Program-made: the position numbers and the translations under genes
Notes under the pieces: model-generated
The model's input: only the letters and a program-made list of their open reading frames with translations
Databases searched by the model: none
What the model was told of the DNA's origin: nothing
From: an uncultured Acidobacteriota bacterium
GTDB lineage: Bacteria; Acidobacteriota; Vicinamibacteria; Vicinamibacterales; UBA2999
DNA: 64,000 nucleotides
Direction of reading: 5' to 3'
NCBI GenBank assembly: GCA_963841895.1
Contig: CAWJEO010000014.1
Coordinates: 38,303 to 102,302 of the forward strand
Shown: one piece after another, positions 60,649 to 62,437 of the stretch
How positions within the stretch are numbered: the stretch's first letter is position 1
Layout: the number at the start of each line of letters is the position of its first letter

Positions 60649-61992
60649 GTGACGACCACTCGTGAACTCGATGCCGTTGTGATCGGCGGCGGCCCGGCGG
60701 GCTCGACCGTCTCGACGCTCATGGCCCAGCATGGACTCAACGTCGCGCTGTTCGAGCGCGAGCGCTTTCCCCGCTTCCACATCGGCGAATCGCTGATCCC
60801 CGAAACCTACTGGGTGCTGAAGCGGCTCAACATGCTGGCCAAGATGCAGCAGAGCCACTTCATCAAGAAGTACAGCGTCCAGTTCGTCAACGCCGCCGGC
60901 AAGCTGTCGGCGCCGTTCTACTTCTGGGACAACAAGCCGCACGAATGCTCGCAGACCTGGCAGGTCGTCCGCAGCGAGTTCGACAAGATGATGCTCGACA
61001 ACGCCCGCGAGCACGGTGTCGACGTGCACGAGGCGACGCGCGTCGTCGACGTGCTGTTCGACGGCGACCGCGCCGTCGGCGTCACCATCCAGAACGGCGA
61101 CGGCCGCCGGGACATCCACGCCAAGGTCGTGGTCGACGCCAGCGGACAGAACGGCATCCTGCAGAACCGCTTCGACCTGCGGGTCTGGGACCCGATCCTC
61201 GACAAGAGCGCGGTGTGGACCTACTGGAAAGGCGCCTACCGCGACACCGGCAAGAACGAAGGCGCCACGATGGTGCTGCAGACGGCCGACAAGCACGGCT
61301 GGTTCTGGTACATCCCGCTGCACGACGACACCGTGAGCGTCGGCGTCGTGGCCCCGTCGAAGCAGCTGCTCAAGGGCCGCGGCACGCCCGAGCAGATCTA
61401 CACCGAGGAAGTCGAGCAGTGCCCCGGCGTGCAGCAGCGCATCGGCGGCGCGACGCGCGTCACCGGCTACTTCGTCACCAAGGACTACTCGTACCGCGCG
61501 AAGCAGGCGGCCGGCGAGGGCTGGGTGCTGATCGGCGACGCCTATGCGTTTCTCGATCCGCTGTACTCCTCGGGCGTGCTGCTGGCGCTCCGGTCGGGAG
61601 AGATGGCCGCCGACGCGATCGCCGACGGCCTCGCCAAAGGCGACGTGTCGGCCGCCCAACTCGCGCGCTGGCGCCCGACCTTCGACGAGGGCGTCAACCG
61701 CATGCGGCGCCTGGTCTGCGAGTACTACGACGGCTTCAGCTTCGGCCAGTTCGTGCGCAACTATCCCGAGCTGCGCGGCACGGTCACCGACCTGCTGATC
61801 GGCGACCTGTTCACCGAACGCGTCGACAAGGTGTGGGGGCCGATGGAGTCGCTCTACCCGCACGGCAAGCTGCCGATCCCGGCATGGAACGATCCGCCGC
61901 GCACCGTGGACGCGACGCCGATCCGCGCGTCAACGAGCTGCGGCTGCCGGACGGCCCCAGGCCGTAGACCAGGCTGTGAGTACCGGGATTAG
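60649..61992 (+). CDS. FAD-dependent oxidoreductase of the flavin-dependent halogenase type
   Basis: GGGPAGS dinucleotide fold; GWFWYIP (WxWxIP) and FLDPLYSSG (FxxPxxSxG) halogenase signatures; 447 aa. Confidence 0.7.
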   Translation: MTTTRELDAVVIGGGPAGSTVSTLMAQHGLNVALFERERFPRFHIGESLIPETYWVLKRLNMLAKMQQSHFIKKYSVQFVNAAGKLSAPFYFWDNKPHECSQTWQVVRSEFDKMMLDNAREHGVDVHEATRVVDVLFDGDRAVGVTIQNGDGRRDIHAKVVVDASGQNGILQNRFDLRVWDPILDKSAVWTYWKGAYRDTGKNEGATMVLQTADKHGWFWYIPLHDDTVSVGVVAPSKQLLKGRGTPEQIYTEEVEQCPGVQQRIGGATRVTGYFVTKDYSYRAKQAAGEGWVLIGDAYAFLDPLYSSGVLLALRSGEMAADAIADGLAKGDVSAAQLARWRPTFDEGVNRMRRLVCEYYDGFSFGQFVRNYPELRGTVTDLLIGDLFTERVDKVWGPMESLYPHGKLPIPAWNDPPRTVDATPIRASTSCGCRTAPGRRPGCEYRD

Positions 61993-62437
61993 ACGTTCGT
62001 GCTATCGACGGCGGATTCAGTATCGCGACACCGATGCGTCGGGCATCGCGCACTTCACCATCTTCTTCCTGCTGTGCCGAGGAAGCCGAGCACGCGATGT
62101 GGCGCGAGCACGGTCTGAGCGTCGAGCCGCGCGAGACCGACATCGGCTGGCCGCGGCGTGTCGGCGTCGTTCGAGTTCCTGCGCCCGCTCAGGTTCGAAG
62201 ACGAAGTCGAGGTGCAGTTGCGCCTGATCGGGCGAACGTCCAAAACCCTGCCGCTATCAGGCCGTCATCGTCCACGACGGCAAAGTCGCGGCCGCAGGGA
62301 CGATGACAACGATCTGCGTCGAGAAGCGTCCGGGCCGGCCGCTCCGCGCGATTGCCATCCCGGCAGAAATCGCCGGACCGCTTCACAGTCGTCGCGCCGA
62401 TCGAGGTTCCCGGCCTCAGAGGGTCTCGATCCCCTGA
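61976..62437 (+). CDS. 4HBT/YbgC-type hotdog acyl-CoA thioesterase; heavily frame-disrupted
   Basis: RIQYRDTDASGIAHFTIFF ... SFEFLRPLRFEDEVEVQLRLIGRT ... AVIVHDGKVAAAGTMTTICV in three frames. Confidence 0.5.

Follow-up and report, generated by a model that had tools for sequence, protein, structure and literature searches.

A flavin-dependent-halogenase-type gene in a conserved radical-SAM and thioesterase module of an uncultured Acidobacteriota bacterium

The locus and its halogenase-type gene

We describe a gene for a flavin-dependent halogenase (FDH)-type flavoprotein in a stretch of 64,000 nucleotides (nt) from an uncultured Acidobacteriota bacterium (assembly GCA_963841895.1, contig CAWJEO010000014.1, positions 38,303 to 102,302), the whole of which is referred to here as the window. 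The gene is real and encodes an uncharacterized member of a well-known enzyme class inside a conserved small module, with a function that we propose by comparison. The gene and its immediate partners, in window coordinates, are the following.

60649-61992, plus strand: FDH-type flavoprotein gene, 447 aa as read, native up to residue 421 and out of frame over the final 26 aa
61912-61967, plus strand: 1-nt deletion near 61913 (GGACGC-GACGCC), followed by DADPRVNELRLPDGPRP and the native stop TAG at 61965-61967
61976-62437, plus strand: hotdog (4HBT/YbgC-type) thioesterase, disrupted, located by peptide homology across frames
62427-62463, no strand: tandem array of a heptamer in about 4.7 copies (GATCCCT/CCCCTGA), lying between the 3' end of the thioesterase and the stop of the radical-SAM gene
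62462-63778, minus strand: HemN-like radical S-adenosylmethionine (rSAM) gene, 438 aa, intact, convergent with the FDH gene, with a HemN_C domain and the sequence GGGTPS

Motifs, profile and fold all make it very probable that the open reading frame (ORF) encodes an FDH-family protein. The ORF matches the Pfam family PF04820 (Trp_halogenase) at 107.9 bits (cut-off 21; E=7.7e-31), well outside the range of chance. The first-pass annotation had reported both halogenase signatures together with the flavin adenine dinucleotide (FAD) fold, and all of them lie where they were claimed. The GxGxxG FAD-binding motif is GGGPAG (aa 13-18), conserved across the family, and the WxWxIP motif is GWFWYIP (aa 217-223, nt 61297-61317), whose W, W, I and P do not vary among 68 relatives and which aligns with the motif of FasV, CndH, CmlS, Bmp2 and PltA. 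The GDAxxFxDPxxSxG motif reads GDAYAFLDPLYSSG, and its FLDPLYSSG part (aa 301-309, nt 61549-61575) is likewise invariant in the 68 relatives.

The catalytic pair that the earlier annotation proposed to look for in an alignment is present, and loss of the lysine is ruled out. Lys74 (nt 60868-60870) aligns with CmlS K71, CndH K76, PltA K73 and Bmp2 K74 in both HMMER and MAFFT alignments; it occupies the catalytic lysine position, equivalent to PrnA K79. Glu48, within HIGESL (aa 44-49; GESL motif), is at the position of CmlS E44 in the variant-B active site. Both residues are invariant in the 68 relatives.

Sequence searches of the PDB retrieved FasV (8zop; phmmer E 2.6e-71, 34% identity), CmlS (3i3l; E 1.1e-56), CndH (3e1t; E 1.3e-55), Bmp2 (5bul; E 4e-54) and PltA (5dbj; E 2e-53), and the closest solved relatives are phenol and pyrrole halogenases at about 30-34% identity. 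The QhpG structure 7ctq is matched only at E=7e-4. A grouping with non-halogenating monooxygenases was also looked for. With a profile of the family, the best ten PDB matches, at 175-266 bits, are nine halogenase entries and the uncharacterized 3nix (FasV 266, PltA 233, CndH 225, Mpy16 222, ChlB4 218, CmlS 214, Bmp2 203, RadH 175), whereas the top non-halogenase, FixC, scores 63 bits. An AlphaFold model was built for a 95%-identical homologue, P0001 (pLDDT 79, pTM 0.82). Its Foldseek top 20 in the PDB are FasV, PltA, ChlB4, Bmp2, Mpy16, CndH, 3nix, CmlS and RadH entries, and its TM values are 0.65-0.76 against these halogenases, with a range of 0.73-0.80 also obtained for FasV.

The FDH does not reach the curated equivalogs for CmlS (NCBIfam NF033113; 227.8 against a cut-off of 900) and QhpG (NF049967; 153.6 against 240), and therefore is a superfamily member outside every characterized subfamily. 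It also stays below the geranylgeranyl (GG)-reductase subfamily model (135 against 158.8 bits). Codon-wise comparison with the related locus L003 gave a ratio of nonsynonymous to synonymous differences (pN/pS) of 0.16, with pS 0.14 and pN 0.023; the low ratio indicates purifying selection on the FDH in the lineage of the window.

The radical-SAM partner and the conserved operon

The FDH had been taken for a stand-alone enzyme outside any cluster, with a convergent HemN-like gene downstream. That gene is confirmed at 62462-63778 on the minus strand, but it is no unrelated neighbor. We surveyed 83 related loci (denoted by L-numbers, e.g. L001 and L020) by tblastn and ORF clustering, and a HemN-like rSAM orthologue lies within 6 kb of the FDH in 46 of them, which makes it the most consistent partner; a 4HBT thioesterase lies within the same distance in 44. 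The FDH is thus not stand-alone: dozens of soil Acidobacteriota have it in a conserved operon together with an rSAM gene and a thioesterase gene.

The usual orders are rSAM, FDH, thioesterase or rSAM, thioesterase, PaaK-like ligase, FDH, and the genes are tightly packed. In L020 the gaps are 8 nt between rSAM and FDH and -4 nt between FDH and thioesterase. In L059 they are 3 nt (rSAM to thioesterase), 0 nt (thioesterase to PaaK) and 7 nt (PaaK to FDH), and in L072 31 nt (rSAM to a gene designated c42), -44 nt (c42 to thioesterase), 9 nt (thioesterase to PaaK) and 46 nt (PaaK to FDH). The PaaK-type aryl-coenzyme A (CoA) ligase, which gives BagE/FlxY family matches, is in the operon at 12 loci. 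No carrier-protein gene was found in the operons, whose gaps of -4 to about 130 nt are too small for one.

The rSAM protein carries the cysteine motif CxxxCxxC as CRKRCHFCYF, and Phe occupies the position of the fourth cysteine of HemN (Cys71). It matches HemN (4e-29) and the class-C methyltransferase NocN (7e-28) about equally well, and lies below every curated family cut-off, including those of HemN (TIGR00538; 168.9 against 324.95 bits) and HutW/ChuW (174 against 400 bits). From the missing cysteine, the scores and the NocN match we infer a class-C-type role, probably as a methyltransferase or in related radical chemistry. The gene is under purifying selection in the window lineage (pN/pS 0.05 against L003; pS 0.10, pN 0.005).

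Homologues of the FDH are very numerous, and the best 120 matches are 73-95% identical. A scan of one genome per species gave 80 loci at 67-84% identity, from Acidobacteriota (mostly labeled Vicinamibacterales), Planctomycetota (Gemmataceae, Pirellulales, Planctomycetaceae) and one Chthonomonadales metagenome-assembled genome (MAG). The closest long relatives of the window locus are Acidobacteriota soil MAGs. Source annotations of the homologues are generic only, namely 'flavin-dependent dehydrogenase' and 'coproporphyrinogen oxidase'. In Planctomycetota, whose copies are 67-75% identical, a MarR gene precedes the FDH, and a neighbor-joining tree sets these copies apart from the acidobacterial ones.

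Other recurrent neighbors of the FDH are pyrroloquinoline quinone (PQQ)-like beta-propeller paralogues, PadR genes with MacB-like permeases, a glyoxalase/MBOAT pair and an iron-dependent alcohol dehydrogenase (Fe-ADH). In a search from the rSAM side, rSAM and thioesterase were adjacent in all three loci fetched (L085, L086, L087), and an FDH was nearby only in L087, where it is located behind a MacB-type ABC exporter. In several relatives either such an exporter (ATPase, FtsX permease, YknX-like adaptor) or a PadR gene with a duplicated-permease gene separates the FDH from the thioesterase/rSAM pair; loci with insertions are L010 (7326-11609), L087 (7815-12099), L015, L016, L018, L025 and L043. 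The inserted exporter and permease genes may serve export of the product or self-resistance.

Three operons contain the c42 gene, for a protein of 175-213 aa, between rSAM and thioesterase (L048 931-1476, L072 3404-4045, L074 3746-4270). It has no Pfam or NCBIfam match, and a profile search of the PDB gave only a weak match to 2nwi (E=0.006), which may have a chorismate-lyase-like fold. Assignment of c42 as a chorismate lyase is unproven on these grounds and is retained as a lead; if it were correct, 4-hydroxybenzoate would be the likely precursor.

The C-terminal tail and the thioesterase of the window copy

The stop of the FDH ORF had been read as overlapping the start of the thioesterase. 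This overlap is produced by the 1-nt deletion near 61913, called against the 95%-identical relatives L003 and L084, which also removes the tail of the protein. In its native frame the FDH ends with ...DPRVNELRLPDGPRP and TAG at 61965-61967, 8 nt ahead of the thioesterase GTG. The native tail motif NELxLPxGxxP occurs family-wide in two phyla and is missing from the window ORF as read. A fuller form of the tail, K/R-x-N-E-L-x-L-P-E/D-G-x-x-P (window native frame 61914-61964), is common to Acidobacteriota and Planctomycetota. In comparison with five solved halogenases, the family tail extends past the parts that align, and model confidence is low there.

The thioesterase itself could not be retained as a gene overlapping the FDH, because 61976-62437 holds no intact hotdog-thioesterase ORF; four frame corrections are needed and an in-frame stop is present. 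The 4HBT peptide is readable only through frames 2, 0, 1, 2 and 0, in the segments 62003-62068 (frame 2), 62079-62156 (frame 0), 62158-62250 (frame 1), 62252-62374 (frame 2) and 62376-62411 (frame 0). Single bases are inserted near 62069-62078, 62157, 62251 and 62375, and the stop in frame 2 is at 62225-62227. The catalytic-region motif is kept (YRDTDASGIAHF, DTDASGIAH; catalytic Asp motif DxDxxGxVxH). The stitched sequence scores 43.6 against TIGR00051, below the cut-off of 68.7.

Orthologues in L001, L003 and L084 are intact (Pfam 4HBT_2 45.5 against a cut-off of 25.5). In these three and in L004-L006 and L010, an intact thioesterase gene immediately follows the rSAM gene on its strand and converges with the FDH gene; the orientation in the window is reversed relative to all seven. 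Functional coupling of FDH and thioesterase, as first proposed, stands in part: the thioesterase is a conserved partner elsewhere, whereas the copy in the window is broken and in close relatives the gene follows rSAM on the opposite strand.

The FDH and rSAM genes of L003 and L084 are about 95% identical to those of the window at the nucleotide level; the thioesterase is about 71-75% identical to that of any relative. Codon-wise comparison with L003 gave pS 0.64, pN 0.16 and pN/pS 0.25 for the thioesterase, and pS 0.10-0.14 for the flanking genes. These values rule out an orthologue decaying in place and indicate a divergent allele shaped by purifying selection. Its donor was not found among 87 loci, in which the top match is only 75-78% identical in nucleotides.

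Inverted (GATCCCT)n arrays, 27 nt long and 100% complementary, lie on either side of the thioesterase gene in L003 (1420-1446 and 1889-1995) and in L084, and one such array is retained in the window at 62427-62463. Since the inverted arrays flank the gene in both relatives, they are a plausible substrate for inversion of the thioesterase. The thioesterase region (window 61967-62463) may be an invertible or exchangeable cassette.

It is possible, although we consider it somewhat unlikely, that the lesions are real and the window copy is a decaying relic, with a thioesterase pseudogene and a truncated FDH tail, whatever the function of the module. The thioesterase carries four +1 insertions in about 350 nt, compared with about 0.7 frameshifts per kb in neighboring genes, the indels lie outside homopolymer runs, and the thioesterase is parted from the rSAM gene by the inversion. 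Frameshifts also occur, however, in conserved core genes, lipA among them, and in the box and enoyl-CoA hydratase (ECH) genes, and ORFs are fragmented window-wide, a pattern that points to an indel-rich assembly. The divergence of the thioesterase arose under purifying selection (pN/pS 0.25), and in L003 and L084, both close relatives, the genes are intact, which also argues against a relic. The four insertions are either recent lesions or assembly errors; with indels common throughout the window, real decay is not separable from sequencing error. The module copy in the window may thus be impaired, or its sequence may be merely error-rich.

Proposed function

The best reading of the sequences is that the clade comprises strongly conserved, two-component FDHs of the phenol/pyrrole type, as predicted from the motifs and the nearest solved relatives. 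We tentatively propose, from the enzyme family and the operon partners and short of even confidence, that this uncharacterized clade halogenates an aryl-acyl-CoA-type substrate within the rSAM/thioesterase module. Its parts differ in strength: it is somewhat more likely than not that the FDH halogenates, and less likely than not, although suggested by the operon partners, that its substrate is CoA-bound.

By the chemistry of the family, reduced FAD from a reductase encoded elsewhere would react with O2 to a C4a-hydroperoxide, and attack of halide on it would yield hypohalous acid. The WxWxIP wall would keep the organic substrate off the flavin, and Lys74 with Glu48 would deliver the halogenating species to an electron-rich aromatic ring. 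The operon partners in Vicinamibacterales-like Acidobacteriota are a HemN-like, probably class-C rSAM enzyme, a hotdog acyl-CoA thioesterase and, in some genomes, a PaaK-type aryl-acid CoA ligase. An aromatic acid would presumably be activated as its CoA thioester and then halogenated; the rSAM enzyme would carry out a probable C-methylation or other radical modification of the CoA-bound aromatic, and the thioesterase would release the product with no carrier protein involved.

The acyl- or aryl-CoA-derived substrate suggested in the first-pass annotation has comparative support from the conserved association with the thioesterase and from the PaaK-type ligase that 12 operons contain. The coupling as read in the window itself does not contribute to it.

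Several observations weigh against this proposal. Literature on FDHs with HemN-like and thioesterase partners and on Vicinamibacter halogenases yielded no characterized member of the clade, and FDH motifs are no proof of halogenation. No flavin reductase was recognized among the conserved neighbors, for which no reductase-specific model was used. The PaaK-like ligase is found in just 12 of about 77 loci, and tblastn detected none in the whole 64-kb window, so CoA tethering is a feature that we infer. For a tailoring enzyme of secondary metabolism, the family is unusually well conserved across phyla (67-84% identity). In the window, the FDH is without the family tail and the thioesterase is not translatable. 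Finally, the Planctomycetota copies have no rSAM or thioesterase gene within 6 kb, and no FDH is nearby in two of the three rSAM-thioesterase loci retrieved by way of the rSAM gene; the FDH and the rSAM-thioesterase pair can therefore function apart.

We regard it as unlikely, though worth stating, that the operon of rSAM, FDH and thioesterase, with or without the PaaK-like ligase, represents an undescribed carrier-free pathway in which an aromatic acid would be halogenated and rSAM-modified as its CoA thioester, and that it is a widespread source of small organohalogens in soil. Vicinamibacterales-like Acidobacteriota are among the most abundant soil bacteria, and together with the Planctomycetota they are very abundant, little-cultured bacteria of soil and water. 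If the family truly halogenates, dozens of Vicinamibacterales-like species as well as Planctomycetota would possess a dedicated halogenase, making it a concrete candidate agent for some of the chlorination that soil organic matter undergoes biologically. Such an FDH, possibly using CoA thioesters instead of carrier proteins, would be useful for biocatalysis. The recurrent set of FDH, HemN-like rSAM and hotdog thioesterase offers a compact mining target of 3-5 genes that standard cluster-finding rules would miss, and the module is widespread in abundant soil bacteria and directly testable.

Alternative explanations

The protein could also be a halogenase that acts by itself on phenolic or aromatic compounds in free form, whether environmental or produced by the cell, in detoxification, signaling or the formation of soil organohalogens, with the adjacent rSAM-thioesterase pair reflecting co-regulation or a separate function. 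The Planctomycetota orthologues, with only a MarR-type regulator upstream, fit such a role, as do the contexts glyoxalase, FDH, MBOAT; Fe-ADH, FDH; and the PQQ-like beta-propeller arrays. The two rSAM-thioesterase loci without an FDH within 6 kb point in the same direction, and FasV, the nearest solved relative, works on a free substrate. An FDH placed between rSAM and thioesterase with gaps of 8 and -4 nt is, however, hard to explain without a shared pathway, and the linkage recurs in about 45 species-level genomes. We consider a lone halogenase to be distinctly unlikely.

It is quite improbable that the protein is a non-halogenating flavoenzyme, e.g. a hydroxylase, which has retained the FDH scaffold as QhpG and LodB/GoxB have. 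The scores with the QhpG (153.6 bits) and GG-reductase (135 bits) models of NCBIfam would be in line with it, but both are under their cut-offs (240 and 158.8) and under the CmlS score of 227.8, and the QhpG structure 7ctq is hardly matched. The high conservation across phyla would fit a fixed, possibly housekeeping substrate, and the conserved neighbors include no recognized halide-related or reductase genes, again with no reductase-specific model used. Against these points, the halogenase-specific WxWxIP motif and the lysine are invariant, and the top profile and fold matches are all proven halogenases except the uncharacterized 3nix.

A role in tetrapyrrole metabolism, with the rSAM protein as an oxygen-independent coproporphyrinogen oxidase or ChuW-type heme degrader and the flavoprotein as an associated oxidase or reductase, is highly improbable: source annotations do name the rSAM protein coproporphyrinogen-III oxidase, its best NCBIfam matches are HutW/ChuW (174 bits) and HemN (169 bits) and the HemN N-terminal region aligns, but these scores are far under the cut-offs (400 and 325), the partners are a thioesterase and an aryl-CoA ligase with no heme genes, and Phe replaces Cys71, which Layer and co-workers reportedly found in 2002 to be needed for HemN activity.

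Comparison with known systems

FasV (8zop), the fasamycin FDH, is the best match in both sequence and fold, and has the motifs and the Lys/Glu positions in common with the FDH of the window. It is a tailoring enzyme of a Streptomyces type II polyketide cluster with a large free phenolic polyketide as its substrate, which it chlorinates in vitro together with the FAD reductase CtcQ (PMC11420778). Unlike FasV, the family described here is found in operons of 3-5 genes without a polyketide synthase, and has its own C-terminal tail, NELxLPxGxxP.

The variant-B FDHs (CndH, CmlS, PltA, Mpy16 and Bmp2) resemble the FDH in being compact (about 410-450 aa) and in lacking the large substrate-binding domain of the Trp halogenases, with profile scores of 200-233 bits. 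They act on pyrrolyl or aryl groups tethered as thioesters, to which a CoA thioester would be the counterpart. These enzymes need a substrate bound to an acyl or peptidyl carrier protein, with adenylation and carrier genes adjacent, whereas the FDH operons contain no carrier gene and have a PaaK-type CoA ligase and a hotdog thioesterase in its place.

As a system, the module comes closest to the orphan 'Halo_AMP' clusters of sponge microbiomes, described in a 2026 bioRxiv preprint with a similar set of accessory genes: an FDH is accompanied by a phenylacetate-CoA-ligase-like (BagE/YtkN-like) enzyme and frequently by genes for rSAM enzymes, thioesterases, PQQ-like proteins and ABC transporters. 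Of the cluster families, 16% are from Acidobacteriota, and no product is known for any (10.64898/2026.08.03.742642). The likeness to the related loci is drawn from the described architecture. The Halo_AMP clusters come from marine sponge symbionts, and their defining AMP-binding gene is absent from the window but present in 12 related loci.

The Bmp5/Bmp6 and BaaA/BaaB pairs, in which a chorismate lyase and a brominase yield bromophenols or dibromo-anisic acid, follow a similar minimal logic of an aromatic acid and a halogenase. They too lie outside megasynthase clusters, and one example is from a planctomycete. Bmp5 and BaaB differ in being another kind of flavoenzyme, acting on free 4-hydroxybenzoate without rSAM, ligase or thioesterase; both are single-component enzymes. 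The planctomycete brominase BaaB was considered as a member of the FDH family and rejected, as its published description is Bmp5-like.

For the rSAM protein, the closest parallels are the class-C rSAM methyltransferases paired with aryl-acid activation, NosN/NocN with NosI (nosiheptide) and YtkT with YtkN (yatakemycin), which presumably act on electron-rich aromatic acids held as thioesters. The window rSAM is, like NocN (7e-28), HemN-like and without the fourth cysteine, and in related loci it is found together with an aryl-acid-activating enzyme. The nosiheptide and yatakemycin systems are, in contrast, large clusters for a ribosomally synthesized and post-translationally modified peptide or an alkaloid, with carrier proteins or peptides, and the window rSAM is below every curated cut-off.

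Neighboring genes and sequence quality

Further upstream, the following genes are of relevance to the earlier interpretation of the locus.

59694-60597, plus strand: lipA (lipoyl synthase; passes the NCBIfam cut-off for that enzyme), frameshifted near 60463-60476
53472-57609, minus strand: box region with boxB, boxC (one frameshift) and ECH (two frameshifts); a divergent TetR gene adjoins
54404-55828, minus strand: boxB, intact, NCBIfam equivalog 735 against a cut-off of 499

The position of lipA upstream of the FDH was reported correctly. The box genes had been invoked as the possible source of a halogenated or hydroxylated aromatic, and here the genes hold but the link is weak. The intact boxB is genuine, and so is boxC, whose equivalog cut-off is passed by the copy in the syntenic relative L001; no boxA was seen near boxB/boxC in the window or in L001. 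The neighborhood of lipA with box, ECH, TetR and metallo-beta-lactamase-type (MBL) genes is limited to the window's own small clade of 5-6 loci (L001, L004-L006, L010), and in L001 the block is placed between lipA and pyruvate dehydrogenase genes. Given this restriction to closely related loci, lipA was rejected as a functional partner, and the case for the box genes as a substrate source is weak.

Relative to L001, two frameshifts are found in ECH and one each in BoxC, the MBL hydrolase, lipA and the FDH. ORFs are heavily fragmented between 30000 and 51000, with long stretches without any long ORF, and a sigma-54-type (NtrC-like) regulator is in three pieces (48830-49666, 49648-49947 and 50041-50427). 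The fragmentation points to an indel-rich assembly or to widespread pseudogenes. Gene overlaps and coupling read from such sequence are unreliable, and indel-rich, rearranged sequence accounts in part for the anatomy initially reported, with its overlapping thioesterase, its stand-alone FDH and its links to lipA and the box genes. A scan of 59.5-64 kb for promoters and terminators gave nothing above chance.

Tandem arrays

Short tandem arrays with units of 7-8 nt in 3-5 copies occupy many intergenic gaps of the window, among them AGGGATC, GAACTCAG, ATCTGGTG, AACTTGG and others. The arrays are located as follows.

364-396: tandem array
8794-8865: tandem array
12850-12888: tandem array
20683-20762: tandem array
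30180-30273: tandem array
44399-44494: tandem array
55846-55940: tandem array
59028-59079: tandem array
59617-59674: tandem array
62427-62463: tandem array, the heptamer array next to the thioesterase

The GATCCCT heptamer occurs 12 times in the window, with 0.35 occurrences expected. Relatives have other heptamers at matching places; in L001 these are GCCCTAC-like and GTGGCCG units.

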